DNA of 64,000 bases from Candidatus Undinarchaeota archaeon (GCA_964519305.1 CAZFHY010000009.1:22229-86228), one strand, 5' to 3'; shown: positions 260 to 48,200, numbered from the stretch's first letter. A program made the numbers and translations. The notes: generated by a model not told the origin, from the sequence alone.

Positions 260-1239
260 TGCCCATGGGTCGGTACGCGGCGTGGCGTACGCTGGGCATC
301 CTCGCAATCATCCTTTCTCTGGTAGTCATCGCCGGGGCCGGCCTGCCCCCCTCGCTCGATTATCGCTCCTATGAGCTTTCGCTCTATGTGCGAGCTGACG
401 GGACCTGCCAGGAGCAGATCGATGCCACCTTCATTAACAACGGCACCGAACCGCTGGAGAAGGTGTCGTTCACCGTGGGCAAGGATATCGCGAACCTCAC
501 CGTGACCGCCTCCCGGCCAGTTAGCGTCACCGAGCGCGATGCGAGCTGGGCGCGGATCATCATCATCGCGTTCGACGATCCCGTATCGCCGGGAGAACAG
601 GCCTCGTACACGATCAGGTTCGACACCTCCCAGTTCACACGGATCGTTGGCGACGAGCTGGAGGTGCGCACCACCTACAAGGCCGCATGGCCCATCGCGG
701 ACTTCAGAGCACGGGTCGATCTCCCTCCCGGGTACGTCCTTCCCATAGCAGAGAACGTCACTCAGGTGGCATCGGTGGTCGTACCGGCCGCACGGCTCGA
801 GACCGATGGCAAGCATCTCATCCTCCACTGGGACCAGGGTCCCCTCGACAAGGAAGAGACCATGGACCTCTTCGTGCGTGCCAAACGACCCCCTGCACCG
901 GTCAGCGGGAACACCGCTGATGGTGTATCCATCCTCGTTGCCGGTATCATCGCGGGCGCCTTCGGTTATGCTCTGCTCGTCCACCTTCAAGCAAGACCAT
1001 CGGTCCTCTCCGGGTTCTCCCTTGACGAGCGTATCGTCGTCTGTGAGCTGGCCAAGCACGAGGCCCCCATGAACCAGAACGATCTGTGCAGGGCTCTCGG
1101 GTTCTCCAAGTCCAAGCTCTCGCGGCTCCTGAGCGACCTCGAGGATAAGGACGCGCTCACCAAGGAGCGAGTGGGGGCGGTCAATCGGGTGACCCTCGAC
1201 CGGACGCTCAAGGGGGCGTGCCGGAGGGAATCGGGATGA
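256..1239 (+). CDS. membrane-tethered winged-helix (MarR/TrmB-like) DNA-binding protein with an extracytoplasmic domain
   Basis: ATG 256 overlaps the upstream stop. Layout: N-terminal TM (LGILAIILSLVVIAGAG), a ~190-aa beta-rich ectodomain, a second TM (ILVAGIIAGAFGYALLV), then a C-terminal wHTH 'NQNDLCRALGFSKSKLSRLLSDLEDKDALTKERVG'. Same architecture as 47243-48130. Confidence 0.65.
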   Translation: MMPMGRYAAWRTLGILAIILSLVVIAGAGLPPSLDYRSYELSLYVRADGTCQEQIDATFINNGTEPLEKVSFTVGKDIANLTVTASRPVSVTERDASWARIIIIAFDDPVSPGEQASYTIRFDTSQFTRIVGDELEVRTTYKAAWPIADFRARVDLPPGYVLPIAENVTQVASVVVPAARLETDGKHLILHWDQGPLDKEETMDLFVRAKRPPAPVSGNTADGVSILVAGIIAGAFGYALLVHLQARPSVLSGFSLDERIVVCELAKHEAPMNQNDLCRALGFSKSKLSRLLSDLEDKDALTKERVGAVNRVTLDRTLKGACRRESG

Positions 1240-3959
1240 GCTACCGGACGACAGTCCTCCTCCTGTGCATTCTGTTGTCTCTGGGTACCGCGGTCAACGA
1301 TATCGTCGAGGAGGTGGACGCGACCTCCCTGGGCCTGCTGACGACCACGGTGCGGTACTCGCTATCCCCCGACCAGGTCCGAGGGCTCACCGAGGCCGAT
1401 CTCCGGACACGCTGCGCGACCCTATCTGGTGCTCTTGAGTGCACGGCCTCTTTGGAGAGCACCGCTGTCGTGTTCTCCGTCCTGTCGTACCCACAGCTGG
1501 AAGTGCGCTCTCTGGACATCGGTGAGAACGAGGTGACGGCCGACCTCCTGTTGGATTACACTCCTCTACAGTTCGTCCTTTGCGATGGCCTGCGCGCGGG
1601 GCCGCGTTCGCTCTCGATCCGATATCCGAGCCATAGAACAACGTTCAGCAGCGTGCGGGGTATCGCCTATCGTACATCATTCGCCACCCGCCTCGAGCGT
1701 CGACCTCTCGGGGTCGGCCTGCATAAGACCGAGTACACCCTCGGCGAGCCCATCCCTCTCCCCCGACTTGGAGGAAGGCTCTGTGCGGCCCACGTGGACA
1801 TGGTAGAGGGCGAGGGGGCCCTGACCACATACAGGTGTTCGAACCACACGCTGACCCTCCCTCCAGAGCTCCAGCCCGGCACACACACACTGACGATCAC
1901 GCGCCTGGAATCCAATACCGCCTACGTCGCCAAGTTCTCCACTCGGTTCCGCGCGGCCGAGCTCGACCTTGCCCTGAGGCTCAAGGATGACCGTGCTGCC
2001 CTGGGTGAGCCGATCAACCTGACCGTGACGTCCTCCGAGGAGCTCACAGGGTGCTCTGTCCACATCCTCGACCGGCATGGTGTGTCGGTCGATGCCGTGA
2101 CCTACGCGGCATGCGACACCGTGATGCTCGGCACGCAACCCTCCTGGGAGCCTGGTGAGTACGTGGTCCGGCTCCGCGGGTTCGCCGGACGCGTCTCCGG
2201 TGTGGCCTCGATACGTGTCGTGCTCGAGGACACCGGGCTCAAGGATGCCGAGCTCGCTCTGGAGAAGCAGACATACGAGCCTGGTGAGGACATCAAGCCC
2301 GCGATCGATGTCCCGGGCGCGACGGGCAAGGAGCGCACCGTCACGGACCTTGTGGACACCTCGGGCGAGAGCATCGACAGCCAGGAAGTGGACGGTCTCG
2401 ATGGAACGGTCATCCCCATCACACCGGACACTCCGCCAGGTGATTACGTTATCAGGACCAAGGTGTACGATGATGAGGGTGTGGTCGCCGTGGCCTCCCG
2501 GGCGATCCACGTGACAGAATGGCAACCCGCATCACGCAGGTCAGCGCTCTGCCCGCGGGGCAGCCTCTCCGTGGATGACGCCTCCATCGCATGCATCGCT
2601 GAGGGCAACGTGTGCGTACCGACATCGAGCGATGTCCCCGTATGCCTCTGCTTCAACGAGGAGGGGGATCCCGCACACGTATGCTCGTTCGGCCAGCGGT
2701 GCGCTGCGGACGGGTGTGCGGGCGGACCCGAATCACCCTACACCATCGTGTTCGAGCAGTCCAGGTGTCGTGCCAGACGAGGCATAACTACGCTCCCCTG
2801 CATCGGCCAGGGCGAGGTATGCTTCGGCAACTGTGTTTGCCTTGATGAGAACAACGTCCCGCTCTCGCCATGCAACACCGGAGACGTATGCACTCCCTCG
2901 GGCTGCGAGGACGCCGGTATCGTGCTCCGGCTCGACGCCATGACACCAGGCTATACTGGAGTTGACGAACTCGAGGACGGTATCAAGGTCACCTGGACCG
3001 GTTTCCTGAAGCGTGGTGACCGGTTCCTGGGAAGTATGGCCACACGCGACATCAATATCACGGCCAAGCTCGGCTCCCTCAAGGCCGAAGAGACCGGTTT
3101 CGAACACGTGTCTCTTGACAAGGGCTGGCTGTTCTGGGCAAGGTTCGCCGGCTCGATCCCTCCCGGTCACTCCACCCTTTTCCTCATCATAAGATACGAG
3201 AACGACACGGTCCACGTGGTCCGTCGGCCTTTCGCACTGCACTTCCCGGCCGACGAGCGCGGTCTGAACGTGTCAATTGACGTGCTCACGCCCCAGATGG
3301 TCAGCCTGGAGAGCTTGCGCATCGGTACCGCGGTCCGGGTGACCGCTGAAGTGCGGGATGACATGGGAGAGCCCGTCATGGACCTCGCCACCGAGGAGTT
3401 CACCCTCACTCTGGGAGCAGTCAAGGCGCGCTCCCTCTCTGCCCAGTTCGAGCCCGCGAGCAAACGTTGGCGCGTTGTGGGCACTCTTGAAGGCAAGGTC
3501 GCCGCGGATAAGCTCAGCCTCGAGATCGACTCGCTCGGCCGCAAGGCTTCAGCGTCGAGCCCACTCTCGGTCGTCGAGCATCTGCCGCTGACGTTGGAGA
3601 TGAGCCGCATCAGGCCGGGCACTGGTGATAATCCGCTTTATTCCATCCTCCTGGGCATCGGGTTCAACATGGACATCCATCTCGACCTAGAGGGGGCCGA
3701 TCTGGTGAGGGAGGAGGACTTCAAGGTGAGCATCGGCGAGCGGGACGTGACGTCGTCGCTGGCGTACATCATGTCGACACCCTCCGGTGTTCGGCTCCAC
3801 CTGTCCCGTGTGAAGCTCTGTCCTGACGCACCAAGACCTGGTGATCCTGTACCGGTCGAAGTGTCAGTGACGTCAGATGGCGTAACGGTCAGGGACCGTA
3901 TCTACATCACCGTCCAGGGGAATCCCGGCGCGTGGTCTGATACCGCCAGCGTGTGCTAG
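1236..3959 (+). CDS. large secreted multi-domain (Ig-like/beta-sandwich) protein with a Cys-rich module
   Basis: ATG 1236 overlaps the upstream stop (ATGA). Signal-like N-terminus TTVLLLCILLSLGTAVN, long uninterrupted ORF, and a Cys-dense stretch encoded around nt 2550-2915. Confidence 0.7.
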   Translation: MSYRTTVLLLCILLSLGTAVNDIVEEVDATSLGLLTTTVRYSLSPDQVRGLTEADLRTRCATLSGALECTASLESTAVVFSVLSYPQLEVRSLDIGENEVTADLLLDYTPLQFVLCDGLRAGPRSLSIRYPSHRTTFSSVRGIAYRTSFATRLERRPLGVGLHKTEYTLGEPIPLPRLGGRLCAAHVDMVEGEGALTTYRCSNHTLTLPPELQPGTHTLTITRLESNTAYVAKFSTRFRAAELDLALRLKDDRAALGEPINLTVTSSEELTGCSVHILDRHGVSVDAVTYAACDTVMLGTQPSWEPGEYVVRLRGFAGRVSGVASIRVVLEDTGLKDAELALEKQTYEPGEDIKPAIDVPGATGKERTVTDLVDTSGESIDSQEVDGLDGTVIPITPDTPPGDYVIRTKVYDDEGVVAVASRAIHVTEWQPASRRSALCPRGSLSVDDASIACIAEGNVCVPTSSDVPVCLCFNEEGDPAHVCSFGQRCAADGCAGGPESPYTIVFEQSRCRARRGITTLPCIGQGEVCFGNCVCLDENNVPLSPCNTGDVCTPSGCEDAGIVLRLDAMTPGYTGVDELEDGIKVTWTGFLKRGDRFLGSMATRDINITAKLGSLKAEETGFEHVSLDKGWLFWARFAGSIPPGHSTLFLIIRYENDTVHVVRRPFALHFPADERGLNVSIDVLTPQMVSLESLRIGTAVRVTAEVRDDMGEPVMDLATEEFTLTLGAVKARSLSAQFEPASKRWRVVGTLEGKVAADKLSLEIDSLGRKASASSPLSVVEHLPLTLEMSRIRPGTGDNPLYSILLGIGFNMDIHLDLEGADLVREEDFKVSIGERDVTSSLAYIMSTPSGVRLHLSRVKLCPDAPRPGDPVPVEVSVTSDGVTVRDRIYITVQGNPGAWSDTASVC

Positions 3960-3998
3960 TTGGACTACCGGGCGTCAATGCCCTTGATAAGGAAGTGC

Positions 3999-4023
3999 GG
4001 GGCGGCCGCGAGGACCGCCCCGG
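3999..4023. terminator. GC-rich hairpin between convergent genes
   Basis: Perfect 8-bp stem cggggcgg / ccgccccg with a 9-nt loop, lying between the 3' ends of 1236-3959(+) and 4039-4803(-). Confidence 0.4.
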
Positions 4024-4038
4024 TAATCTGTCGTTCGC

Positions 4039-4803
4039 TCACTCGTCACGGGGGCCGAATATGGCTTCCATGACGTTGATCTGCTGCTCCTTGTGCGAGC
4101 GCATATCTTCGAGCTTGGCCTCCTGACGGCCCTTGTACCACTTGCCGAACAGGGGGACCTTGCCGAAGAAGTCATTATCGATCTTCTCCTGGCGCGAGCT
4201 CACGTCCGATTCGAGCTTCCCTCGCATCTCACCGTACAGCTCGCCGCTGTCTAGGCCGAAGACCTCCGCGGTGTTCCCATGGCGGTCGACATAGCCGTCG
4301 AAGGAGTCGATCAGTTCGTAGGCAACGGCGGCAGCGCCGGCGCTGTCCACGGCGACCTTCACGCCGCTCAGGTCCTCGATACCGTCGATGTTCTCAGTGA
4401 GCTTATCCCGAGGGCTGCCGTACTCGGCATCGATGGAGTACTTCTCAGTCAACCGGGTCCAGTAGGGGCCGGTGTTCTCGCTCTCCAGCGTCTCGGTCTT
4501 CACGAGATCATAGGCTACGTGGCGGTAGCCGATGATCATTTGCGAGTCGAACTTGGCATGGATACCCTCTTCCTTGCAGGTCCTCTTGATCCCCATGGCC
4601 TTCCCATCGAACTCCTCCTTCATGGGGCCCTTCACAGGGAATGTGAAACCCCTCGCGGTGTCGTAGGTCCCGACACCCTCGTAGTGGTTCTCCAGGCCAG
4701 CCTCGCTGGCCACGGCCTCGCCGACAGCGCCCAACACGTTATACGTGCCACCGCTTACATCGAACTCGTAGGGCATTAGAATATCTTCAGCTTCACCGAT
4801 CAT
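4039..4803 (-). CDS. hypothetical cytoplasmic protein
   Basis: 254-aa ORF with coding-like composition and no TM segment. An AT-rich promoter island (ttaatatagg, about 4836-4846) lies upstream. No family recognised. Confidence 0.55.
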   Translation of the reverse strand: MIGEAEDILMPYEFDVSGGTYNVLGAVGEAVASEAGLENHYEGVGTYDTARGFTFPVKGPMKEEFDGKAMGIKRTCKEEGIHAKFDSQMIIGYRHVAYDLVKTETLESENTGPYWTRLTEKYSIDAEYGSPRDKLTENIDGIEDLSGVKVAVDSAGAAAVAYELIDSFDGYVDRHGNTAEVFGLDSGELYGEMRGKLESDVSSRQEKIDNDFFGKVPLFGKWYKGRQEAKLEDMRSHKEQQINVMEAIFGPRDE

Positions 4804-4941
4804 ACATCGTCACCTAGTTCCCGAGGGCCTATTAAGGGTTAATATAGGTACCCTTTGGGTCCGAACGTGCGACAGTATGGCATCACGCCGTACCCGTTAT
4901 CCACTGCTACCTCACTGGAGAGTGACACCCCCATAGAAAGG

Positions 4942-4949
4942 TTTATAAT
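4942..4949 (+). promoter_or_regulatory. TATA box (tttataat) with purine-rich BRE (agaaagg) for the RecJ-like gene
   Basis: An AT island in a GC-rich background, centred about 28 nt upstream of ATG 4974. This implies a leaderless or near-leaderless mRNA. Confidence 0.55.
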
Positions 4950-4973
4950 CCGGGGACCTCGCTGCGGACACTC

Positions 4974-7295
4974 ATGGTCCTAGGTGCCGATGGGGTGGAT
5001 CGCCATAAATTACGCGAATACACCCAGAACGAGAAAGCTCAAGCCTTCCTTGCAGAGGCCGAGGAGCTGGGGAGGGACATCGTGTCCCAGGCCCGGACCT
5101 CAGAGCGTCTTCTCGTCGTGCACCACTCGTCGGACGTGGACGGTCGGACATCCGGTGTCATCGCTGAGGAGATCGGCAACATGCTGGGCCTCGAGGTGGA
5201 GACGCTGGGCGTTCCGCAGCTCAGCAACACCGAGATCTCCAAGCTGAGCGAGACCATCGACGAGTACCATCCCGACATGATCCTCTTCACTGACATCGGT
5301 TCAGGATACAAGCGGCTCTTGGACGAGGCCGAGGTCGACAACTGCGGCGCGGACGTGTACATCTTCGATCACCACCCGCCCATGGGACCCGACAGCACCT
5401 TCAAGGAGCTGAACCCTGCCAACTTCGGTATGGACGGCGGCGAGTCCTGCAGCGGGGCGACAATCGCATACTCCGTTGCTGAGTCGGTGTACGACGCGCT
5501 CCCCGCCCGCAAGCAGAGCGCGTACAAGAAGGACCTTGAGGAACGCAACATCAAGGTCGGCGACCCGAACGAGCCGGTGATGAGCGTGCTGGGACCGGCG
5601 GCCATGATCGGAGCGCGCGTGGACGGCACCAGTCCCAACGGCGAGGTGAACGCCGCTGTGTTCCAGAAGGCCACCGAGGAGCAACTCGTGACGCCCATAT
5701 CCTGGCCATTCTATGGATTCCACCGTCGCAATATCGTCACATCCCTGGCTGGCAGCGACCGGCCCGTCCTCGAAGGTATCTCCGGGGACGATAAGGGCGC
5801 ACGCGCGTTCGCCAAGGAGCTGGGGCTACACACCACCTACACACCCGCGCGTATGAGCAAGGGTGAGCGGGACCTTGTGCTCGGCTCCATCTCCGAACTC
5901 ATCGAGCAGTCCGGCGCTTCCAAGGCGTTCCAGAAGTACCAGCAGTCACAGCTCTTCGATCGCTCGTACGTGCTCGGCGAGTTCGAGGGTACAGAGATCG
6001 GCACGCTGGGCGAGTTCGGTTCCATGCTCACTGCCTGCACCAAGTTCGGCGCCACGCCCGAGGAGAAGGAGGCCAACCGCGAGCTGGCCAAGAAGGTGCT
6101 CCTGGGCGAGCGCGGCGAGACCTTGGAGAAGGCCGACGAGGTCTGGCACAGCTACCGCAGGATCCTTCGGGACGGTCTGGTGAAGACCTTCGGCAAGATC
6201 AAATTCGACGCATTCCACAAGGACGAGGTCGAGCTCAAGGACGGCGAGAACCACTTCGTATCCTCGACCTTCTATTACAAGGGCGCCGACCCGTCCACCA
6301 TGGGCGTCATGGCCTCCATGGCCCTGGGGACCGCGAACTTCAAGGAGGACGCTTTCCGCAAGCTCCCCATTATCGCCTATACCTATGTCAAGGGCGCCAC
6401 CGACGAGGAGTCGTTCTTCAAGTTCTCCGGACGCTCGTTCGACTACCTCACGGGCGCGGGGCTCGACATCGGCGAGGCCATGAACAAGGCGGCCGAATCC
6501 GTGGGCGGTATCGGTGGAGGCCACGCTGTCGCTGCGGGTGCCAGCATACCTCGTGCGGGATGGAAGGACTTCCTGACCGAGCTGAACCAGACCATCGGCG
6601 AGCAGCTGGAGGATTACATCCTCAACGGCTACAAGCTCCTGCCCAAGCACGAGGAGGCTCTCCTCAAGGACACGGAGTTCGATCGGAGGATGCCCAGCTT
6701 CTTCCAGACGTCCGGTGCCTGGAGCCAGACCCTGACCAAGGGCAACGTCGCTTACGCTCTCGAGACATCCAACGGTACGCAGCTTGGGGCCAAGAAGGGC
6801 ATGTACCAGCTCCTTGCCACCAGGGACGAGGGCCATGTGGAGCACCACTTCACCGCCTACAACACGTTCCGAGATCCGGTCATGGTGAGCGCCAAGGGCC
6901 AGTTCGATGCCAAGGCCGACTATACCGGCTGGGCCGAGAACATCGGAGAGGACGGCAGATCAGGCGTGGAGGCCACTATCGAGCAGAGCGTCTACAACTC
7001 TCTCGAAACGAAGGGGTACAAGATCGAGCGTGACGGCACCTCGACGAAGCTCGTGTCCCCCGGCCAGAACAAGTACGTCCTGGACACCCAGCTCTCCGAA
7101 GGCTACTGTCGCGTCAACCTCGACCAGCTGCAGACCGATGAGAAGCAGCTCACTCAGGACGTCGCCGTCATGATGCGGGAGGTTCGCGACTCGTACCGGT
7201 CGGCCGTGAAGGACGCCTACAACGGTCCGCTCTTCGCTTCCTACCAGCTGGAAGCGCTGGACACGCCCGGTGACGCGCCCCAGGTAGAGGCATAG
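4974..7295 (+). CDS. DHH/DHHA1 phosphoesterase, archaeal RecJ/Cdc45-like, with a long C-terminal extension
   Basis: DHH-type motifs 'VVHHSSDVDG', 'DIGSG', 'IFDHHPP' and the DHHA1 motif 'GGIGGGHAVAAGASIP'. About 220 extra C-terminal residues have no recognised motif. Confidence 0.7.
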   Translation: MVLGADGVDRHKLREYTQNEKAQAFLAEAEELGRDIVSQARTSERLLVVHHSSDVDGRTSGVIAEEIGNMLGLEVETLGVPQLSNTEISKLSETIDEYHPDMILFTDIGSGYKRLLDEAEVDNCGADVYIFDHHPPMGPDSTFKELNPANFGMDGGESCSGATIAYSVAESVYDALPARKQSAYKKDLEERNIKVGDPNEPVMSVLGPAAMIGARVDGTSPNGEVNAAVFQKATEEQLVTPISWPFYGFHRRNIVTSLAGSDRPVLEGISGDDKGARAFAKELGLHTTYTPARMSKGERDLVLGSISELIEQSGASKAFQKYQQSQLFDRSYVLGEFEGTEIGTLGEFGSMLTACTKFGATPEEKEANRELAKKVLLGERGETLEKADEVWHSYRRILRDGLVKTFGKIKFDAFHKDEVELKDGENHFVSSTFYYKGADPSTMGVMASMALGTANFKEDAFRKLPIIAYTYVKGATDEESFFKFSGRSFDYLTGAGLDIGEAMNKAAESVGGIGGGHAVAAGASIPRAGWKDFLTELNQTIGEQLEDYILNGYKLLPKHEEALLKDTEFDRRMPSFFQTSGAWSQTLTKGNVAYALETSNGTQLGAKKGMYQLLATRDEGHVEHHFTAYNTFRDPVMVSAKGQFDAKADYTGWAENIGEDGRSGVEATIEQSVYNSLETKGYKIERDGTSTKLVSPGQNKYVLDTQLSEGYCRVNLDQLQTDEKQLTQDVAVMMREVRDSYRSAVKDAYNGPLFASYQLEALDTPGDAPQVEA

Positions 7296-7308
7296 ACGAG
7301 CTTTCGTC

Positions 7309-8505
7309 CTATCCCAGCGGGCAGCCGCCGGTCCGTCCGTGGGGCCGACACAAACGTAGCATGCACATAGCCATCACTGCCGCTCCGCGGGCCAGGCCGT
7401 CGTCCACGATAGTTATGTCCGGGACACGCTCACGCAGGAGCTCTGGTTTGGCACCGGTCGTGGCCCCGCGGCCCGTGATCCCGATACCATCGGGCACGGT
7501 CATACCCGACTCTTTCACAGCGGTGAGCAATCCGTCGAACAACCGCACAGATAGTCCGTCGAGCACGCACGAGAGATGGCCAGGAGCAACATCTCGGCAA
7601 GCGGCCGTTATCGCGTCAAGGTCGGCATCGCATCCGATGACCGTCACCCCTGCACGCGAGGCGGCAGCAGGATCGACGGGGACGGTCCCAACGCGGTCTC
7701 CTGTGCGCACGGGGCCGATATCCACCAGTTCCATGATGCCTTCCGAGTGTCTGTCCGTCCGTCCCGGACGCACCGGGACGTCCATCGCTGAAGTGAACCC
7801 GCACCCCAGAGCCACGGCGTCGAGGATGCCGCCCGCAAGGCCTGCAAAGGTGGCCACGGTCCTGCGTTCATCATCGATAAGACGACCGGCCAGGGTCGTA
7901 CCGAAGTCCAGGGCAAGGTAGGGATTGCGGAACGGGCCTCCGTTCGCCCGGGCATGGTCTTTAAGCCCCGCGGTCACAAGCTCTCCCTCCATCTCGTTGG
8001 CGGCCACGGGCTCTCCCGGTGGGAGCGTGCCAGCGACCGTTCCTGTGAAGGTCGAGCTGTCGATGATGGAGTGAGAGCGGAGCCGGGGTGCGAGGTTCTC
8101 GGCAGAGAGCGGCGCGATCATCTGACGCGGTTCGACACCTGCGGCAAGGCATGCATCGGCCATGGCCTTGATCAGGGTTCCCACCTCATCGGGCGAGGAG
8201 AATCCTGCGGTAACGCCCGTCGACCTCACGACGAAGTCCAGGTCACGTGCTGAGAGCCGGGCCTGGAGCAGCGATGTGTTGATCGAGCGGCGAATAATGT
8301 CCTTCACTCCGTCCTCGGTGATAGCGTACCCCCATACGGTACGGGCGAAGCCTTCCTTGGCCGCGATTGACCGGGTCCGGTCCACGTGCCGGGCCGCCAC
8401 GCGGGAGGTACCGTTATCAAGGTCCGTCTCCACGAGGATACATTTGGTCGTCGTGTTCCCCAGCTCCACCGAGAGCACACGCAGGGGCTTGGAGGAGAGG
8501 GCCAT
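7309..8505 (-). CDS. actin-fold (ASKHA-like) ATPase-type protein, third gene of the MtrA/MtrH-like operon
   Basis: 'VELGNTTTKCILVE' and 'ALDFGTTLAG' resemble ASKHA phosphate-binding motifs. There is a C-terminal CX4CX8C. The ATG lies 4 nt after the mtrH-like stop. The family assignment is tentative. Confidence 0.45.
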   Translation of the reverse strand: MALSSKPLRVLSVELGNTTTKCILVETDLDNGTSRVAARHVDRTRSIAAKEGFARTVWGYAITEDGVKDIIRRSINTSLLQARLSARDLDFVVRSTGVTAGFSSPDEVGTLIKAMADACLAAGVEPRQMIAPLSAENLAPRLRSHSIIDSSTFTGTVAGTLPPGEPVAANEMEGELVTAGLKDHARANGGPFRNPYLALDFGTTLAGRLIDDERRTVATFAGLAGGILDAVALGCGFTSAMDVPVRPGRTDRHSEGIMELVDIGPVRTGDRVGTVPVDPAAASRAGVTVIGCDADLDAITAACRDVAPGHLSCVLDGLSVRLFDGLLTAVKESGMTVPDGIGITGRGATTGAKPELLRERVPDITIVDDGLARGAAVMAMCMLRLCRPHGRTGGCPLG

Positions 8506-8509
8506 GAAG

Positions 8510-9436
8510 CTATCCGACCAGTTCCGTGAAGGTCCGGTTCTTGGAGATGTCCGTACCGAGCTCCTGGGCCGCGTCGGCCACTATGGCATCCGCCACGGCA
8601 ACGGCCGGGAACACGTGCGGCGCGTGCTCGATCGGACCGTAGAGCAGGTAATCGGCGCACATGGCGACCTGGAGCACGTTGGTAGCGACATCTACGCAGT
8701 CCTTTACCTTCCGGTCCTTATCGCTGAGCCAGGGGAGCGAGGCAGGAGCGTTGTGGATGCCCGAGCCCACAGGGTGTCCCCACTTTGCCTTGGCGGCCAG
8801 AGCAGTGCGCACCGCCACACCGGCGCCATTGCCGATAGGCGTCACTGCCGGGTCCACGAGCACTTTTGTGATGCCCGCGGCCGACGCCAGGTCCAGTAGT
8901 CCGGTATCCGTGACATCACCCCCGTCCTCAAGCAGCTTGAGCCGCCCGTTCAGACCGGAATCCTTGGGATTGAAGGCGAGCACGATGGCGCAGCTCACAC
9001 CGGACGAACGCAGCGCCTCGATCTCTTCATCCGTGACGGTCAGGTTGAGCGAATTATAGACTATGCGGTCGATAGCGCCCGCCTCGACCGCCCAGCGCAC
9101 GCCAGCTAGCCGTACGTCGAGCGACGGGCTGTCCACCAGCAGCGGACCCGTGGTGGCGTCGGCAGCGAAGTTGAGGTAGTTCTCCATTGCCTCGGAGTGG
9201 GCTGCGAAAACATGGAGGAGGGCCGGATTGCCCGTTTCCTCCGCAGCGGCCTCGTGTGCAGCTACCAGCTTCTTGGCACGCTTCTTATCGAAGTCGCCCT
9301 GCTTCATGTCATGGACGATATCGTGACCCTCGTAGAAGATGGTCGCGGCAAGTGCCGTGGGGTGTTCCCCCGGCTGACCGCCGATGGTCGCACCGGCCAC
9401 CTCGATCGTCCGCTGTTCAGTCTGGAACCTTAACAT
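8510..9436 (-). CDS. mtrH-like: MtrH/MtxH-like methyltransferase (tetrahydromethanopterin S-methyltransferase subunit H family)
   Basis: Full-length resemblance to MtrH (pterin-binding TIM-barrel-like; 'GGQPGEHP', 'VDPAVTPIG', 'GIHNAP'). I prefer the ATG at 9436, which overlaps the upstream stop as ATGTTAA, over the longer track ORF. Confidence 0.75.
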   Translation of the reverse strand: MLRFQTEQRTIEVAGATIGGQPGEHPTALAATIFYEGHDIVHDMKQGDFDKKRAKKLVAAHEAAAEETGNPALLHVFAAHSEAMENYLNFAADATTGPLLVDSPSLDVRLAGVRWAVEAGAIDRIVYNSLNLTVTDEEIEALRSSGVSCAIVLAFNPKDSGLNGRLKLLEDGGDVTDTGLLDLASAAGITKVLVDPAVTPIGNGAGVAVRTALAAKAKWGHPVGSGIHNAPASLPWLSDKDRKVKDCVDVATNVLQVAMCADYLLYGPIEHAPHVFPAVAVADAIVADAAQELGTDISKNRTFTELVG

Positions 9437-10077
9437 GATACTAACCCCCGTACTGCGTCGATGCGCACCTGTCCTCCGACATGGACCGGATGGGTGAGGT
9501 AGACGCACCCGGTGAAGGGGTCCACCTCGATGGCCGGGTCCGCTGACAGCCACACGTCGCCGTGAGGCGTTCCGGTGGGCGGTAGAGTCGTGATCCGTCT
9601 CCGGACCTCGACCTCCATAGGCCCTCCCGGGTAGTCCTCGCTCACCTGGTCGTCGAGTTCGCGGACCGTCCGCGCGATCAGGTCTGGATCATCGATGCCC
9701 ACCATATCGACCAGCTCAACCTGACGGCGGAAGCGCTCCACGGCCTCAGGTCCTATGTTCTCGATCCGTGGGACAGCACCGGTGGCGTCCTTGATCACGC
9801 CTTCATCATCGATGCCTTCCCTATGAAGGCAGACCATGGCGTTGCCCGAACGATGGCCCACGACCTCGCTCCCGGCCACCACCATGAAACGGATGGCGGT
9901 ATTGGCGATTACATTGACGATGATGCGCTCCAGCCCGAGGTTCTCGGTCTTGCATGAGCCCACGAGGAGAGCCTCGATGTCCGAGAAGCGCTCTTTGTTG
10001 GAACCTACCGTGACGACCACTACCCTGCTGTCCTTCCTGACCTGGATAAAGTCGCCTTTCACGCGCGGCCACGCCAC
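9430..10077 (-). CDS. mtrA-like: MtrA/MtxA-like corrinoid-binding protein, soluble (no C-terminal TM helix)
   Basis: 'WPRVKGDF', 'CKTENLGLERIIVNVIANTAIRFMVVAGSEVVGHRSG' matches the MtrA core, including the cobalt-ligand His context. A TATA-like ttttaaaa lies 21-28 nt upstream on the minus strand (10098-10105). Confidence 0.7.
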   Translation of the reverse strand: MAWPRVKGDFIQVRKDSRVVVVTVGSNKERFSDIEALLVGSCKTENLGLERIIVNVIANTAIRFMVVAGSEVVGHRSGNAMVCLHREGIDDEGVIKDATGAVPRIENIGPEAVERFRRQVELVDMVGIDDPDLIARTVRELDDQVSEDYPGGPMEVEVRRRITTLPPTGTPHGDVWLSADPAIEVDPFTGCVYLTHPVHVGGQVRIDAVRGLVSC

Positions 10078-10114
10078 AAACGTGAAAAACCTTTCGTATT
10101 TTAAAAGCCTTTAC

Positions 10115-12324: not shown

Positions 12325-15300
12325 TCAGTCCCGCCGACGGCCCAAGTAAGCTCCTGCTAGCGCGAGAAGTGTCAGCGACTCAACTACACCCACACCAGGC
12401 GCGGTAACCAGATCGGAACCACCCGTGGAGCCTGACAGGACCACGAGGTTGACGGTGAGAGGTTCTGCGCGTATCTCTTGCGGAACGGTGGCCATCGCCT
12501 CGATAACGAGGCTCGTGGTCCCGACCTTGCCCGCGATTATCGGGATCTGGATGACGCGCTGTTCGCCCTTGGCCAGCTTGTACGTGCACGTCTTGACCCC
12601 TACGTTCTCACCACAGTCAAGGACGACGTTGGTGGTGGCCGAGCCTGAGACGGTGAGCGTCACCGCTATCTCGCCCTCGTAGGGGTTCTGGATGTACACA
12701 GGGTAGAGGTGCATCGCACCCACGGTGAGCGCGAGCGACTTGGGCTGGCCCTCCGGATCGAAGAACGGCAGGTCGTCGACGCACATGGCCCTTAGCGGTG
12801 ACCAGAACCATCCTGACCGGCAGCAACGGCCGACGGCAGTGATGCAGTTGCCTGTGACGCACTCCCAGTTGTACCGACAGGTGCCGATCCGGTATCCGCC
12901 CACCTTCAGGTTCACCTTGAAGGGTATGTTCTGGACCACATCGCGACACTCTGCACCGCTCTCCAGGTCGGGATCGCCCTTACACACGGTCGATGTGATC
13001 TTCACGGTGAAGTCAGTGGGACCCGATACAGGCAGGACCACGTACTTAGAGGCACGGGGTTGGAGTGTCAGGTTGTAGTACACACCGTCCGAGATAGTCA
13101 GCGGCTTGCCTGCCGCGTTGATGACCTGTATAGACACGGGCATCTTGAAGTCCGTGGGGTTCTTGATGAACACCGGCACATCGATGATCTCGCCGGGACC
13201 AGTGGTTATCACGTTGGCCTTCACGTCCTTGGACCGGTCGCACTCGGCCTTGGACTGCTTGCACGCTTCAGAGCTCTCGTCCTCGAAGCAGGCATCGGAG
13301 AAGCACGCGTCCGAGATGGTCGCTTCGAACCCGCCGACGGTGATCGGGATCTTGTTGACCACCTTGTTGGCGAACGTACCATCGCCCACCTGGTTCTTGC
13401 TCTCCACGATGAGCTCGCCCTTCACGGGTCCGCTCACCGGGATGCGCACGATCTTGGTGGTCCGCGCCTCCACGTGGCAGCCGCCGATGGAGGACATGTC
13501 GAGGTCGTTGGAGATCTTCGTGCCATCGTCCTTCTCGTACGCGAACGAGATGGCGCACTCCATCTCCGAGTCGGCGGTGTTGGACACCACGGCCTCGATG
13601 TAGTCCTTGCCGATAGCGGCCTGCTGGATCATCTGGGTGTTCTGGAAGAACACGCCCTGGCTCTCGCCTTCTTGCACGCCCACAGTCTCGCCTGTGGCGA
13701 GCTTGGCGGTGACGAACACCGTCACCTCGCCAACGTTCTCCAGCGCGGCCTCGAGGTCGGCAGGTGCCGTCGGGCACTCACCGGCAACGCAGTGCGCGAT
13801 GCGCACCTTGATGTAGTAGGTCGCGATGCCCTCGCTGGTCACGTTGAACACGTACTGGTTGTCCGTCTCGGCACCAAGGTCCTTGGGCGGATCGGGTAGG
13901 GTCTTGATCGGTGCGTGGTCTGCGTCAAAGATCTCGACCTTAAGGCCGAGCGGATAGGACAGGCGGTTGTCGATACCGTAGTACCGGTTAAGCGTGGTCT
14001 GGGCGTCCTCGAGCGTGTACGTCAGTTCGTCAACGTTCAGCGCGCAAGCATCGTTCTCGCACGTAACGATGAACGCGAGGTTCGCCACGAGCTGTGCCTT
14101 GGCCTCGTCATCTGTCAGGTCATCTTCCGTGACCTCACCTATCTCGATGTCCGTTTCAACGGACGTGGTGATCCACGAGTCGTAGTAGATTAGCTGTGCG
14201 CCAGCGAACACGGCGTACTTGATCTGTAGGTCGGTGATCGAGGTCACTGTGAACTCGACGATCCTCGACTCTCCGGGAGCTATGCCGGAGAGCATTATGG
14301 ATGCCAGCGTCTTGACACCGGTGGAAACGTTGACCTCTACTGAGACCGTGCTGCCGAGCTGGTTGGTGACCTTCAGGTACTTCTTTTTGACCTGGTCGAT
14401 GTTGGTACGCATGCTCAGCACGGGCGGTGGTGAGATACCATCGAGCACGAACTCAGCGTCCGGGACGATACCTTCCACATCGGTGACGTCGGTGAGGCTT
14501 GTCTGTGCCTCGGGAACGGGCGGTAGTGGTGTGTAGCAGTCCGCGGGGCACTTGTTGGGACCGGTCTTCTCGTCCTCCTGACATACACCATCGGGGCAGG
14601 AGGCATCGAGGCAGTCGGCACAGTCGGGGCCCTCGCCCTTCGCGGGCTCGCACTCCCCGTCATTATCGCACGACTCGCACACTCCACAGTCGGACGGGCA
14701 GTTCTCGCAGCTCTCGCCCTGGATCATGTCGCAGACAAGGGTGCCCGTGATCGGGTCGGGGACACCGCACATGTCCGGCAACTGACAATCGTCAGGTGCG
14801 TTCTGCCAGCTCTCCCAATAGTCACAGAAGCCGTCAGCGCACACCGTCTGATCACCGGCCTGCTCGCCGGTCAGACCGCAGCAGTCGGCGGGGCACGTGT
14901 CCGTGGTCTCGCCGCGCTCGGATTGGCAGTTGTGGTCGCCGCAGACGTAGATCGGCGCAAGGCAGTCGCGCGGTAGCGGATCTAGACCCAGCTCGATTAT
15001 ATCGCACACATCGTTGTCCTGACACTCCTGAGGACAGTCCCCGTCGGTCAATGGATCGCACGCACCGTTGTCGCACGTGACCGGGCATGGGCCGCAGTCG
15101 TTGTCGTGGTCGGTGCAGTCCTCGCCCACCTCGCATCCGTTGGCGTCGGGGATGTGGCGTACGACCTCGCACTCCTCGCAGATACCGCAGTTGGCCGCGC
15201 CCCCGCTGACGGTGCAGCACTCGTTGTAGAGGCACTCCGAGATGGGACCGCAATGGCCGGGGAAGCACGGTGATGGACCGCTGGCCAGCGGTTCCATGCA

Positions 15301-18300
15301 CAGCCCGCCATCGTCGGGCGAACAGTAGCCTTCTATGGAGGAATCGTCCTTGAAGAGCCGGCAGTCCGAGCCCGCGCCCAGCCAGCTGATGGTGATCTCC
15401 TTTGTCTCGAATGATCCCTGGGCGTCACGGTCCACCTGCTTGCAGTAGCGTTTTTCGGTGTCACCGGGCAGGGTCCGCGTGTGCGTGTCATCGTCGTAGC
15501 TCGAGCAATCGCACAGGTCCACGTACTTGAACTTCAGGGTGAAGCCGCGGTTGAACGAAGATTGCATGAACTGCCAGGTGTTGCACTCGACCTGGTACAC
15601 GAGGATGCGGTTCTGTCCGGGCCGCAGGGTGTTGGAGACCAGCGGTTCGGCCGAGAGCGTGCAGAAGTTGGACTTCCAGCTGGGATCGGGCTCGTCGTTC
15701 CCGAGATATAGCTGGTTCTCCCGCGGGTCGTAGTTTAGGATGTAGTCGTAGAGGTCGAAGCCGTTCTTGAGGTAGGCGATACCGTCCCCCACGTTGGTGA
15801 GCACTACCCTGATCTTCTGCACAGGCGAGCAGTGGGGCCATTCGTCATACCCGTCCGGTATGGCCGTGGTCACCGTGGCGCTGGACACGACGACGTCGGC
15901 GGAGCGCCATATACCTGTTTGTCGGGTACCCTTGTGCTCGTCGAGCGCGTTGAAGAGCCGCAGTTCGTACTTGGGCCGGGTCATCTGGTCGGGGCCGAAC
16001 GACTCCGTGGGCGTGAAGCTGCAGTCACCCTCGCACGAGGTGGCACCCTCGCCACAGGTACCTGTGGTGATCTGGCATTCCGGTGATGCGCCATCGTACT
16101 CGAACACCTTGTCATCATGATCATCGCCATGACGCAGGGATATCTTGCGCAGCTCGGTGGTGCACTGGCTCGTGAACCTGAAATAGAGCGGATCGCCCTT
16201 GGCGGGGCAGATGTTCAGGTCGAGGTCCACGGGCGGATCGTAGATGGCGATCTGGGGTTTCTGGATCTTGATGTAGAACTCCCCGCACTCGCACCGCTCC
16301 TCGTCGAACGCACAGGTAGTTGGATCGCACGTGATGCTCCCGTCCTCGTCAACGTCCCGGGCTATGAGTATCTTGTGCTGGCCGAAGGGCGTCGATTCGG
16401 GAATCCGGATGGAACAGGTAGCGTCCTTCCTGTACTCCTTTCCCGTGCCAGCGTTACAGGTGCCAAGCTTGCGATCGTCGGCGATGCGGTCCAGGTACAC
16501 GACAGCCTCGGGGCTCGAGCAGGTCACGGTGTAGGAGAAGGTGATGGTCGCTCCCGGGCACAGCTCGGTGATGGGGGGTGCTTCGGTTAGCGTGATCTGG
16601 GGGTCCGCCACTTCGAACCCGAGGTCGGCCTGGCCCATCCGCCAGCCGTCGGCGCCCTTTGCAGAGTTGCACGAACCGAACTTGCAGATGCTGCTCAGAC
16701 CGCTGTCGGAGTACTGGTTGCACCCCCAGGCCCTGTCGCCCTCGCCACCGCAGTCGGGGCACACGAAGTTGCCCTGCGTGTCACAGACACGGGTGGCGGT
16801 GTCCACGTAGATGGTGTAGACACCGGGTGCTCTGGGCCCGAGGTATGTCTTCCCGGTATTGGCCCGGTAGTCGATGTCGTTCCCGGGCGCGTGACCGTAG
16901 CGTCGCCAGACATCGCATGTCTGTCCGTCCGATGCACGCAGGTAGGCGATGGCACCGGGGCTCGAGAGGACCGAGTTGCACGAACTGTCCTTGCACAGCA
17001 TGCACTTACTCGTGGAGAGGTAGTTCTCGGACTTACCGCCCATGTCGATGATAGGCGACTTGTGCGGATCGCACACGGGATTGGACCCGGCGTAATTGAT
17101 ATCACCACACCTCGAGATGCGACCATAGGAGTTGAACGAACCGGTGTTGCGTGCACCGTTCGAGCACACGAGGTTGTACTGGCTCACGGTGACGTAGAAC
17201 TGTAGCGCGTCACCCGGACAGATCTGGTTGCCTGTCCGGTCCGGGTCGATATCCACGTTTATAGCACCGGAGTAGGAGATACCTGTGCTCTGAGTGGCCC
17301 CGACGCTGTGGGTGCAATGTGAACCGGCACAGGTGGCGCCGAGGTTCACCTTGCAGTTACCGTTCTTGCACGTGAACGTCTCATCGGCGTTCTGTCCGGC
17401 GAGCCTGAGCTTCACGGCCTGTGAGCCCGTGGTGGTCTTGGGATTGATGGCAAGACGACACCAGGGGTCCGGGTCCTGTTGTATCGTGGAACCCCCGTTC
17501 TCGAGCGACGTGGGTCCCGGACACGTACCTTGGAGCTTGTCCCCCAAGATCACGTCGAAGTAGGTGCCGGGCGGGTAGCACCGGCTCGCGATATGGAGGT
17601 AGAGCGATGCCGACAGACAGGTGCTGTCAGGGAACACGTACAAATCGATTCCCTTCTGGGCGATATCGAGGGTGACGCTGTCCGAGTCCTCGTAGTACAT
17701 CCCGGACTGGGGCGCTTTTGCGACGATGTTGACCGATGTCTTGCTGAAGTCCGAGGGGAGCTTGAGCTCGACGTACCCGAAGGCGTCCGGGGTCTGGGTC
17801 GCACCTATCTGCAGGTCACCGTCGAACATCTTGACGGCCACATGATTGCTACGGACGACGCCCTGACCCCATTCATCGATGACGCGGACCTTGAACCTCA
17901 CACCTGTGCATCCGCTCGGTGGAAGCTCGGTGACGGTCAACTTGCTGACAAGCTTCAGATCGGTGATGGCCGTGGAGTAACCGTTCTTGAAGGCCACGAT
18001 CTCAAGGTCGCCCACGAAGTAGGCCATGTCGATGATCGCTTCTGCGGCGGAGTCCCAGGTGAACCTGCCTGTAGCGTCCGTGGTCCCTTGGGTCATGATC
18101 GTCTTGGTCTCGGCGTCACGCACCTCGATGTTCGCTTCCGGGACCGGGTCGTTGGAACTGGTCACAACGAAACTGACTGTGCTCTCCGGGTGGATGCTGT
18201 TCACCTCCTGGTCGGAAACGTCAAGGATCTTGACGTCGATGATAGGGATGTCGATGGGGATGAACTGCTCCATCTCCTGGAACGCGCCGAGCTCGTCCTT

Positions 18301-22233: not shown

Positions 22234-23835
22234 TCACGCATTCTCGTGCTCGCTGAAGGCCATGGCCTTCCAGTCCTTGCCCTTGAGCACGCGGCCCAGG
22301 ATCTCCATTGCCTCCGACTTCGGTCGGGGGTAGGTGAACCCGATCTCCTTGATCTTGTTATCATAGTCCGCGGCGATCTCGTCCAGCGAGTAACCAGCGG
22401 CAGCGGCCTCGGCGGCCAAGCGCGCGGCCCAGGCGCCGTCCAGAGTACCGTAGCCGTGGATGCCTCCGCCCATGGTGGTGACTGTGTCGGTGCCGAACAT
22501 CTTGGCCAGCTCGATCAGGTGCTTGGGGTAGAGACCTCCCGAGTTGACGGGCATCACGGGGCGCATGCCGTACCACTTCTGCGGGAAGAACCAGTTGTAC
22601 TCGCCCTCCTCGACCTCGGGCACGTAGTCCTCCTGGCTGATGCAGTGGGCGTAGTTGAGGATCTCGGACTTGTCACCCTCCATCTTGCCCACAACGGTGC
22701 CGATGTGCAGCTCGTCGATACCCGCCAGGCGGCAGCACTTGGCGATCACCATCATGTCCACCCCGTGCATGGGGGTGCGAGCGAAGCTGGCGTGCATGGC
22801 GCGGTGGCCGTGGATGAGGAGCGGCGGACCGTGCTCGCGCAGGGTCTGGACCGCAGTGAACCCGCCGGTGATTATGTCGATCATGCACCCGATGGCCCCC
22901 ATCTCCTTGACGAAGTAGGCCTTCTCCAGCATGTCCATGGCGCTACCGGAGGTGACGTTTGCCACGTAAAGCTTGCGCTGGTCGATGCCCTTGGCCTTGT
23001 GCTCGGCCTCGACCTCCTCGATACGCTTGAAGGACAGGTAGGCCCTAAGGTAATAGGGATCGAACTCCTGGTCGGTGAGGTTCTCGTCATCCTTGACCAC
23101 GGAGCAGTACTTGAAGGTCTTGTACAGCACCTCGGCCTGCTCGTCGGCGAAGAGCCCGGTCTTGGGCTTGGGGATGGTCCCCACCAGGGTGTGGCCATGG
23201 GTCTTGGTGACCTCACGGATCCCGGGGATACCGAAACGGGGTCCGGGGAACGTGGCGATGTACTCGGGGGGCATGTGGAAGTCCATCACCTTGATGTACT
23301 CCACGGCCTTCATGGCCAGGATGTTACCGGTGATGCAGCTGAAGAGCTGGGGAATGCTCCCCGGCTCGAAAAGGGCCAGCGGGTAGGCCACCTTGACGTG
23401 ACCGGCCTTGCCGTCGACCTCGGGGATGCACTCGTACACGGTGCCCGCGAGGCTCAGGGTGTAGGAGGTCTCGGTCTGGACGTCGGTCCAGGTGCCCGTC
23501 GACGACTCTAGCGTGACGTGGTTGGCGGCCTCTTCCAGGGTCTCCCCCTTGGGGGGCGTGACCTTGAACGATGCCAAGAGGTATTTCTCCGGCTGCTTGC
23601 TGGGCTCGAACCCGATGTCTAGGAACCGGACGAGAGTGTCCTTCTCCTGGAGCCGGGCGGCCTTCTTGACCTGTGACTCGGTGAGTGTGGGGCGCTTCCA
23701 GGTGAAGGGTTTTGCGCGCTCGTCCTGCATCTTGCGAAGGGTCGCGAACATCGTGTCCCTTGCACGAGCCCGGGCCTCGTCGATATCCTTGCCGATGGCG
23801 CTGTTGAGCACTCCGTTCGCGTCGGTGATTTCCAT
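22234..23835 (-). CDS. rbcL: ribulose-1,5-bisphosphate carboxylase/oxygenase large subunit (form III or II/III-like) with an N-terminal extension
   Basis: Catalytic motifs are present: 'ESSTGTWT', 'GNI', 'PKPKTGL', 'VVKDDENL', 'HGHRAMHA', 'LHIGTVVGKMEG', 'PVNSGG', 'MGGGIHG'. SD GAGGAG lies before ATG 23835. Confidence 0.85.
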   Translation of the reverse strand: MEITDANGVLNSAIGKDIDEARARARDTMFATLRKMQDERAKPFTWKRPTLTESQVKKAARLQEKDTLVRFLDIGFEPSKQPEKYLLASFKVTPPKGETLEEAANHVTLESSTGTWTDVQTETSYTLSLAGTVYECIPEVDGKAGHVKVAYPLALFEPGSIPQLFSCITGNILAMKAVEYIKVMDFHMPPEYIATFPGPRFGIPGIREVTKTHGHTLVGTIPKPKTGLFADEQAEVLYKTFKYCSVVKDDENLTDQEFDPYYLRAYLSFKRIEEVEAEHKAKGIDQRKLYVANVTSGSAMDMLEKAYFVKEMGAIGCMIDIITGGFTAVQTLREHGPPLLIHGHRAMHASFARTPMHGVDMMVIAKCCRLAGIDELHIGTVVGKMEGDKSEILNYAHCISQEDYVPEVEEGEYNWFFPQKWYGMRPVMPVNSGGLYPKHLIELAKMFGTDTVTTMGGGIHGYGTLDGAWAARLAAEAAAAGYSLDEIAADYDNKIKEIGFTYPRPKSEAMEILGRVLKGKDWKAMAFSEHENA

Positions 23836-42674: not shown

Positions 42675-42781
42675 AAGACTTGTGTTCTTTCAGGTGTTTT
42701 CATCCAGGTGAAAGCAGCTTCACATCATTACCGGGAACCTTCTTTAACCATTTCAGCGCTCATTGTTCCCGGTTGATCACA

Positions 42782-43438: not shown

Positions 43439-43484
43439 GCTGCGAGATATCGAATTCATGTGAGAGCCTGAGAGGAAATGTGCC

Positions 43485-45996: not shown

Positions 45997-46000
45997 ACAT

Positions 46001-47236: not shown

Positions 47237-47242
47237 GGCGGC

Positions 47243-48130: not shown

Positions 48131-48139
48131 TTCACCCCA

Positions 48140-48200
48140 GTTCCGCAGTTCCGCACGATATACGCCTTCGTTCCGCAGAAATTATTTATTTCGTTCCAGA
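48140..48200 (+). promoter_or_regulatory. four direct GTTCC(G/A)(C/G)A repeats embracing a TATA box (candidate operator)
   Basis: GTTCCGCA at 48140, 48148 and 48170, and GTTCCAGA at 48193. TATA aaattatttattt (48178-48191) lies between copies 3 and 4. ATG 48214 is about 29 nt from the TATA centre. Confidence 0.5.

Follow-up and report, generated by a model that had tools for sequence, protein, structure and literature searches.

A soluble MtrA-MtrH pair next to methanogenesis marker 14 in a marine archaeon without McrA, and its possible link to methionine synthesis

Which role is left for two subunits of the methanogen methyltransferase Mtr in an archaeon that does not contain the methane-making gene McrA? 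This question is raised by positions 7309 to 10077 of a DNA stretch of 64,000 nucleotides from a Candidatus Undinarchaeota archaeon (GCA_964519305.1, CAZFHY010000009.1:22229-86228; hereafter called the window), where genes for an MtrA-type corrinoid protein and an MtrH-type methyltransferase are followed by a third gene for a protein of the acetate and sugar kinase/Hsp70/actin (ASKHA) type. An earlier note on this DNA had interpreted the three genes as a possible self-contained methyltransferase with its own activase, with the third gene replacing the mtxX gene of the related Mtx systems. We report here that this interpretation is partly supported: the locus indeed encodes a soluble methyltransferase that stands alone and is accompanied by an ASKHA protein, but this protein is the known methanogenesis marker 14 (DUF2114, also called m26), and related gene clusters suggest from their gene content that the trio supplies methyl groups for the synthesis of methionine. 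Papers given by PMC number are cited for those parts of their text that were available.

Organization and constraint of the locus

Reading the window directly, we found three co-directional open reading frames (ORFs) on the minus strand, located exactly at the positions given in the earlier note (Table 1). The stop codon of mtrA and the start codon of mtrH overlap in the sequence ATGTTAA, and the TAG stop codon of mtrH is followed after 4 bases by the ATG of the marker 14 gene. A gap of 43 bp lies between mtrA and a divergently oriented ylqF-like gene for a YlqF-type GTPase and contains the TATA-like box TTTTAAAATA, which may, judged by its spacing, represent a putative promoter; a near-leaderless mtrA transcript would follow from this. 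The three genes would form one transcription unit and may be regarded as a membrane-free survivor of the Mtr complex of methanogens. As a measure of constraint, we determined the ratios of nonsynonymous to synonymous substitution rates (dN/dS) against the locus of a sister species of 90% identity (L011; protein identities of 84-95%), which amounted to 0.146 for MtrA, 0.051 for MtrH and 0.093 for marker 14. Because these values are in the range of 0.05-0.15, all three genes are constrained, and purifying selection acts on each of them. The neighbouring gene convergent with that of marker 14, which codes for an archaeal RecJ/DHH-DHHA1 protein, is also retained in the sister species (L001/L011).

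The host genome

The genome assembly to which the window belongs comprises 3.63 Mb in 42 contigs, with a completeness of 99.83% and a contamination of 4.29%. Profile searches of this assembly found neither McrA nor MtrE (PF04206), the latter being the only membrane subunit covered and used as a proxy for MtrB, C, D, F and G. The module therefore stands alone, as had been proposed, and no evidence of a full mtr operon together with mcr was obtained elsewhere in the genome. The further claim that only A- and H-like genes occur applies in so far as MtrE and McrA are missing, but the genome contains two MtrA and two MtrH genes, with the second pair located on another contig (C26). Among the pathway and methyltransferase genes that the earlier note had considered informative, we found Mch and CdhC, and therefore a Wood-Ljungdahl route of the tetrahydromethanopterin (H4MPT) type exists, whereas profile searches for MttB, MtaB, ComA and the RamA/RACo-type domain RACo_C_ter were negative in the same genome. 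Neither genome of the genus gave a match to TIGR03555, the model for Mer, so that no gene is assigned to the methylene-H4MPT reductase step by this search, which did not include MetF/MetV. A search for URO-D (MtaA-type) proteins yielded one weak match, which is located inside the MetE encoded on contig C26, and the 26 matches to B12-binding domains all fall into open frames of 420-660 aa, none of them representing small corrinoid proteins.

Marker 14 is present as a single copy in this genome. Within the GTDB phylum, it was found only in this genus (G000 and G006, with genomes of 3.6-3.8 Mb) and was missing from 15 of 15 other sampled genomes, which are 0.6-1.2 Mb in size. A close public relative carries the label Candidatus Undinarchaeales (DPANN). 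The two large genomes may represent a free-living-type branch of the phylum, or their placement needs checking (contamination 4.3-6%).

The anchorless MtrA and its MtrH partner

The product of the first gene matched the MtrA family PF04208 with 163 bits and the mtrA equivalog TIGR01111 with 152 bits, which is under the cut-off of 249. Its top match in NCBIfam was NF010654 ('methyltransferase', a 197-aa model of soluble MtrA-like proteins), which covered the model end to end (positions 7-194 of 197) and scored 168 bits, also less than the cut-off of 279. We aligned 27 MtrA sequences from the window, its sister species, Thorarchaeota, methanogens, ANME-1, an Archaeoglobales metagenome-assembled genome and the second copy of the own genome. 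His75 within the motif GSEVVGH of the window protein forms the sole invariant His column of this alignment, and a short soluble extension is present at the C-terminus where the membrane-bound MtrAs have a hydrophobic helix, so both features that had been noticed earlier, the missing membrane helix and the retained motif, were confirmed. The role of this His as cobalt ligand rests on the literature, where it corresponds to His85 in M. mazei (PMC12774963). The soluble tail shares the stretch 'HP..V.V' with the tails of the Thorarchaeota MtrAs. Beyond the own lineage, the best-matching database proteins are annotated as MtrA and come from Methanomicrobiales, with identities of 45-46% across 73% of the query, and from Thorarchaeota, with an identity of 40% across 95% of it. 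In the MtrA tree, the window protein groups with that of locus L137 and with soluble MtrAs linked to MetE (SH-aLRT 96), on long branches.

MtrH was assigned to its family without difficulty, scoring 342 bits against PF02007 and passing the mtrH equivalog TIGR01114 with 348.2 bits versus a cut-off of 271.4. A tree of 64 MtrH rows is divided into two clades, each with a support of 100. The first (clade A) consists of 19 MetE-linked sequences and the second copy from contig C26, and the other (canonical) of 42 sequences from the marker 14 set together with the MtrH proteins of the window and of L137, which are sisters with a support of 95. Because of the strong family membership of both proteins, MtrH very probably would use the methyl group of methyl-H4MPT to methylate the cob(I)amide of the anchorless MtrA.

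The likeness to the MtxXAH systems of Methanosarcina, which had been pointed out in the earlier note, holds in that soluble A- and H-type proteins are encoded in one operon and that the window MtrA matches NF010654, which may or may not represent MtxA, over its whole length. The differences are that the window MtrH belongs to the canonical equivalog and is not a paralogue, that the NF010654 score remains under the cut-off, and that the third gene codes for a DUF2114 protein and not for MtxX, which has a phosphotransacetylase-like fold (PMC12978539).

Family, fold and conserved residues of marker 14

The product of the third gene matched PF09887 (DUF2114) with 340 bits over residues 10-394 (cut-off 25) and passed TIGR03285 ('methanogenesis marker 14') with 336.5 bits versus a cut-off of 274. 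It is thus not a novel component that has taken the place of MtxX, but a known protein family encoded next to mtr genes in methanogens, whose tie to Mtr has been published (PMC9635834). Our literature search, which included the activation of Mtr and had limited coverage of subscription journals, found no function assigned to marker 14.

An AlphaFold model built from an alignment of 71 sequences reached a pLDDT of 89 and a pTM of 0.89, with weak parts only at residues 1-4 and 389-398. A Foldseek search of the PDB with this model yielded ASKHA proteins only, with MK0840 as best match (E 4e-9), and further matches included TsaD/Kae1, type III pantothenate kinase and ATPase subunits of 3-methylbenzoyl-CoA reductase; the reductive activator of corrinoid proteins RACo (3zyy) appeared at rank 11 (E 4e-8). 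A structure search independent of Foldseek retrieved 154 solved chains with Z values of at least 8, and the top ones were all ASKHA proteins covering residues 5-396. They included CoaX (Z 17.7), a benzoyl-CoA reductase ATPase subunit (9gai_C, Z 17.6), FtsA (Z 16.9), the HgdC-type activator 4eht (4eht_A, Z 15.6), the diol dehydratase-reactivating factor (2d0o, Z 15.0) and EutJ (Z 15.0). The modelled fold of marker 14 is therefore that of an ASKHA protein with two RNase-H-like domains, as had been suspected for this 398-aa protein, and no single ASKHA family stands out. A sequence search of the PDB with a marker 14 profile gave nothing meaningful (best E 0.29).

Conservation was scored over 198 distinct marker 14 sequences. 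The motifs E14-x-G-N-x-T-x-K21, D200-x-G-x-T204 and G342-x-T-G-R346, which represent the phosphate-1, phosphate-2 and adenosine motifs of ASKHA proteins, are present in all 198 sequences, and three Cys residues are nearly invariant (C119 in 195, C381 in 198 and C395 in 197 of them). The CX4CX8C arrangement reported in the earlier note is present in the window protein as C381-x4-C386-x8-C395, but it is not a family motif, as the position of C386 is occupied by Cys in only four sequences and by Gly in the other 194. The window protein keeps every residue that is invariant in the family, including NEMEGEL and the Cys triad. No other of the 198 sequences is as short as this protein and that of the sister species (398 aa versus a median of 479 aa), and a tree of 82 sequences shows the two on a stem with a length of 2.46 changes per site, which joins weakly to ANME-1 (support 82), possibly by long-branch attraction. 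The marker 14 of the window is thus highly derived, and the most divergent one examined, yet still constrained.

Two groups of activating ATPases were compared directly. Marker 14 resembles RACo, RamA and the activases of O-demethylases in its ASKHA core and in being encoded beside a corrinoid protein and a methyltransferase, but it gave no match to RACo_C_ter (PF14574) even at E values up to 10 and does not have a ferredoxin-type Fe-S domain, and the distributions of both types overlap. The ATPases of the BcrAD/HgdC type (PF01869), whose dimer interface contains a helix-cluster-helix site with two Cys residues, are represented by two of the structural matches given above (Z 17.6 and 15.6), and their profile (BcrAD_BadFG) matched only one of 15 marker 14 members, and that one weakly (E 0.051).

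Gene neighbourhoods and distribution of marker 14

The name 'methanogenesis marker' rests on an occurrence of these proteins in methanogens only, and this restriction is broken by the marker 14 reported here from a host genome without McrA. Occurrence outside methanogens was already known for Thorarchaeia and Bathyarchaeia, and the same study has reported MtrAH in many lineages and has tied m26 to Mtr by distribution, phylogeny and synteny, including Thorarchaeia that keep MtrAH alone (Adam et al. 2022, Sci Adv, PMC9635834; the legend of its m26 tree names the sequences 'methanogenesis marker 14 protein'). The gene link between marker 14 and Mtr is therefore already published, and the new aspects of our locus are the unexpected host lineage and a minimal, very divergent marker 14.

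We analyzed 80 marker 14 loci and found mtr genes within 7 kb in 39 of them, while the 41 loci without mtr genes were mostly records of Methanosarcinales, Methanotrichales and Methanococcales or short contigs. In Methanobacteria and Methanocellaceae, the gene of marker 14 comes after mtrEDCBA(FG)H, and in ANME-1-type records it is divergent from mtr. Soluble MtrA and MtrH alone are encoded directly upstream of marker 14 in seven loci, namely that of the sister species (L011), one labelled Promethearchaeota, four labelled Thorarchaeota and one further. A gene for a 197-aa nucleotidyltransferase of the TIGR00454/CobY-like type is present downstream of marker 14 in 28 of the 80 loci, all of the Methanobacteria type (e.g., L019:8398-9257); its scores were 174.5 bits for TIGR00454 (cut-off 174.7) and 149 bits for the CobY model NF045495 (cut-off 250). 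Other genes observed downstream of marker 14 code for a PRC-barrel protein in 25 of the 80 loci (Methanobacteria), and for DUF1890 and/or DUF1894 proteins in seven loci labelled ANME-2, Methanoperedens or Methanocella.

Compared to the mtrEDCBAFGH operons with marker 14 of methanogens (Methanosphaera, L002, and Methanobacterium loci), the window shares the MtrH subfamily, the marker 14 family and the gene order mtrA...mtrH-marker 14, but it does not contain the membrane subunits, the CoM-methylating site (CoM, coenzyme M) or sodium pumping, and its MtrA is anchorless. Another system close to it is that of 'canonical MtrAH' and m26 in Thorarchaeia (PMC9635834), which likewise consists of an anchorless MtrA, MtrH and marker 14 encoded in a cluster of a non-methanogen without MtrB-G and Mcr, and the tail of the window MtrA with its 'HP...V.V' stretch is of the same kind. 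Unlike the Thorarchaeota loci, which are arranged as MtrH'-MtrA-MtrH-M14 with two differing MtrH proteins, the window codes for only one MtrH, comes from a host of another phylum and encodes a much more diverged marker 14, with a length reduced by about 70 aa. A further difference to the Thorarchaeota genomes tested is the presence of a MesA-type methionine synthase in the own genome.

Link to methionine synthase

The second, divergent MtrA-MtrH pair on contig C26 is followed by a gene that contains only the Meth_synt_2 domain (Table 1). This core MetE passes the methionine synthase model NF002119 with 268 bits versus a cut-off of 258, and the operon does not include marker 14. Another core MetE is encoded on contig C28, which reaches 313 bits with the same model and keeps the zinc motifs HxC and DPDCG. 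The genome thus contains two parallel sets, one consisting of the canonical-type MtrA-MtrH-marker 14 trio plus a MesA-type synthase and the other of an MtrA-MtrH-MetE operon of the second type.

Searching the 80 marker 14 loci with the MetE from C26, we found a core MetE gene in four loci in total. It immediately follows marker 14 in two of them (L012 and L015) and is located no more than about 0.55 kb downstream of it in the other two (L014 and L021). In L021 and L014, the two genes are separated by a 215-aa ORF, which is apparently a spurious frame rich in Arg, Ser and Pro. A scan with a MetE alignment added 79 loci, and in 19 of these MtrA, MtrH and MetE are encoded in one operon that does not include marker 14; the 19 come from non-methanogens labelled as Thermoplasmata, Methanomassiliicoccales, Altiarchaeales and others, with the sister species of the window among them. 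By its composition, this three-gene operon resembles a counterpart of MetH that consists of three proteins and depends on methanopterin, and we do not claim that it is unpublished. The most complete arrangement is that of L137, where positions 1546-8478 code in this order for a soluble MtrA, MtrH, a 345-aa ORF, a 72-aa ORF, marker 14, a core MetE, a ThyA-like protein and Mch; the 345-aa ORF has only a weak and unlinked relative in the own genome (29% identity, contig C4). McrA was found in none of five genomes tested (L137, L012, one Thorarchaeota, one Altiarchaeales and one labelled Methanomassiliicoccales; completeness not given).

A tree of 85 core MetE rows separates the two enzymes of the own genome. 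The one from C26 groups with the MetE-linked set (support 80), whereas the one from C28 forms a clade with the MesA proteins of methanogens and all five MetEs linked to marker 14 (support 99). From the distribution of MesA, Price et al. (2021, PMC7857596) have predicted that MtrA serves as its methyl donor, and an earlier proposal of a corrinoid protein as methyl donor by Schroder and Thauer is cited in PMC7005905. Our data resemble this system in that the C28 enzyme falls into the methanogen MesA clade and that relatives cluster MtrA, MtrH and marker 14 with MetE, but differ from it in that the available text of PMC7857596 states MesA to be restricted to methanogens, whereas we find the enzyme here and in L012 and L137, in genomes without McrA; MtrA as the donor is so far only predicted. 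New here is the evidence from gene clusters and trees that connects marker 14 and soluble MtrAH of the canonical type with a methionine synthase of the MesA type.

MesA was also considered as a universal outlet of soluble MtrAH with marker 14. This was rejected, as the model NF002119 fails in the genomes of Thorarchaeota, Promethearchaeota and Archaeoglobales tested.

Other features of the window

The remaining features of the window that caught our attention are given in the lower part of Table 1. They include a protein with the domain architecture of a bacterial-type polynucleotide phosphorylase, which is unusual in an archaeon, two giant cysteine-rich proteins and a cassette of genes duplicated in tandem.

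Table 1. Positions of the features discussed. Numbers without prefix count from the first nucleotide of the window, those with a prefix refer to the contig or locus named.
Feature	Position	Strand	Remarks
mtrA-type gene, soluble (anchorless) corrinoid protein	9430..10077	-	215 aa, GTG start, MtrA domain
mtrH-type methyl-H4MPT:cob(I)amide methyltransferase	8510..9436	-	308 aa counted from ATG
Methanogenesis marker 14 (DUF2114, 'm26'), ASKHA-fold putative ATPase	7309..8505	-	398 aa
TATA-like box TTTTAAAATA	10097..10106	-	Read from sequence; 20-29 bases upstream of mtrA GTG
Second MtrA-MtrH pair, then Meth_synt_2-only gene	C26:2207-4778	-	Loci L005, L007, L100
Marker 14 + core MetE loci	L012:6938-9847; L015:387-2706		One-carbon anabolic cluster
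Giant cysteine-rich secreted/surface protein	1218-3959	+	913 aa, Pfam match none
Archaeal RecJ/DHH-DHHA1 protein	4974-7295	+	773 aa, long C-terminal extension, convergent with marker 14
Giant cysteine-rich secreted/surface protein	12325-19206	-	2293 aa
RuBisCO large-subunit homologue	22234-23835	-	533 aa, adjoins GH57 glycoside hydrolase gene
Polynucleotide phosphorylase-like protein	32551-34824	-	757 aa, two RNase PH + KH + S1 domains
Cassette duplicated in tandem, order varied	42201-53126	+	DUF7343/MarR-type regulator, uncharacterised ORF, ABC ATPase, CARDB/DUF11 surface protein, MacB/FtsX permease

Discussion

The best explanation for the locus as a whole consists of a soluble MtrA-MtrH pair, marker 14 acting on its cobamide and a MesA-type enzyme as outlet for the methyl group, and we hold this combination with slightly less than even confidence. 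Within this scheme, marker 14 would serve as an ATP-binding ASKHA accessory protein for the cofactor of MtrA, and an action on MtrA or its cobamide appears somewhat more likely than not. Its most likely reaction would be to bring inactive Co(II) back to the Co(I) state at the expense of ATP via a metal or Fe-S site provided by the three conserved Cys residues. The assignment of marker 14 specifically as a reductive activase is plausible, but should be regarded as tentative and, taken by itself, as rather less likely than not.

The methyl-Co(III) form of MtrA would then most likely be used by the MesA-type core methionine synthase encoded on contig C28 to convert homocysteine to methionine. A MesA-type enzyme is proposed as consumer because MtrE, ComA and Mcr were not found in the genome, and the outlet to methionine is suggested by the gene clusters in relatives and the congruent trees. 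We consider methionine synthase a serious candidate for the outlet in this lineage, although at a little under an even chance.

Several observations weigh against this scheme. Among the ASKHA structures, kinases, Kae1 and FtsA are at least as near to marker 14 as RACo is, and Pfam searches with 15 marker 14 members at E values up to 10 returned only DUF2114 and noise. No ferredoxin-type domain (Fer2/Fer4) was detected in marker 14 by Pfam scans, which leaves three dispersed conserved Cys residues instead. Because of the very long branches, the positions of the window marker 14 and MtrA in their trees are unsafe. Marker 14 is missing from all 18 genomes with a clade-A MtrA-MtrH-MetE operon, and RACo_C_ter is present in 14 of 21 genomes with marker 14 and in none of those 18 (completeness not given). 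The two distributions are thus not complementary, since both proteins occur together in many genomes and both are missing from the 18, and an MtrA-type protein therefore apparently can work without either helper, unless the assemblies are incomplete. Finally, the MesA-type gene on C28 is unlinked to the trio, and NF002119 is missing or far under its cut-off in seven other genomes with marker 14 (four labelled Thorarchaeota, that of L079, one labelled Promethearchaeota and one labelled Archaeoglobales). The outlet to methionine consequently cannot explain all modules of soluble MtrAH and marker 14.

A role of marker 14 as a stand-in for RamA or RACo, as judged by distribution, was also considered and rejected from the same counts of RACo_C_ter.

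Marker 14 might alternatively be a chaperone for loading or exchange of the cofactor, which uses ATP to open MtrA and to insert or swap its cobamide in a similar way as the reactivases of diol dehydratase and ethanolamine ammonia-lyase. Such a function would fit the presence of the diol dehydratase-reactivating factor and EutJ among the structural matches and the lack of a recognisable redox domain, and the frequent CobY-like gene after marker 14 points, though weakly, to a connection with the assembly of cobamides. However, a pure chaperone would not need three near-invariant Cys residues, other ASKHA families score equally or higher, and the CobY-like neighbour is limited to one over-sampled order and stays under both cut-offs, so we regard this alternative as unlikely.

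The usual guess for MtrAH of non-methanogens is the reverse direction, in which the module would feed methyl groups from a methylated substrate into H4MPT and the Wood-Ljungdahl route and marker 14 would serve as a maintenance factor. The presence of CdhC and Mch is consistent with such a route, but no substrate-specific methyltransferase was found (MttB and MtaB are missing, and the weak URO-D/MtaA-type match lies inside MetE), the B12-binding domains all belong to frames too long for small corrinoid proteins, and the clusters of the nearest relatives are anabolic, containing MetE, ThyA-like and Mch genes. We therefore consider a reverse-running module quite unlikely.

It also appears improbable that marker 14 is an ASKHA kinase or enzyme for a small molecule, e.g., a pterin or a cofactor precursor, which would lie near mtrH merely by inherited operon order without touching MtrA. 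Small-molecule kinases are indeed found among the top structural matches (CoaX, anhydro-sugar kinases and MK0840), and about half of the marker 14 loci are located away from mtr genes. Nevertheless, the distribution of marker 14 tracks that of Mtr/MtrA across archaea (PMC9635834), its gene still adjoins those of MtrA and MtrH after loss of the membrane subunits and Mcr in at least three labelled lineages, and it is missing from all small-genome relatives sampled in the phylum. That the trio is just left over from a methanogenesis that has been lost, functionless today and in decay, would agree with the short marker 14 on its long stem, but is hardly credible for intact, overlapping or abutting frames with low dN/dS values and all family-invariant residues kept.

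Returning to the scheme of a soluble methyltransferase with marker 14 and a MesA-type outlet, it can be extended to a bolder proposal, which we consider doubtful: marker 14 would be the missing ATP-dependent activator of the MtrA cobamide, in methanogens as well, and MtrA, MtrH, marker 14 and MesA would together constitute a four-protein, methanopterin-dependent methionine synthase, which would be the reason for their survival in non-methanogens. If this were true, the system would represent an analogue of MetH with its pterin-, B12- and homocysteine-binding and reactivation modules present as separate proteins.

Mtr catalyzes the energy-conserving step of methanogenesis, and the recovery of its cobalt cofactor after oxidation is still described as not known in the available part of PMC12774963. 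The fully soluble three-gene version reported here offers a small system for studying marker 14 directly. Its host is of interest in itself as a member of a genus with a 3.6-Mb genome and a Wood-Ljungdahl route, since the remaining 15 genomes sampled from its phylum are far smaller. The link to methionine synthase bears on the prediction of MtrA as the donor of MesA by Price et al. (2021), and it would offer a concrete reason why such apparent remnants of methanogenesis have persisted in archaea without McrA.

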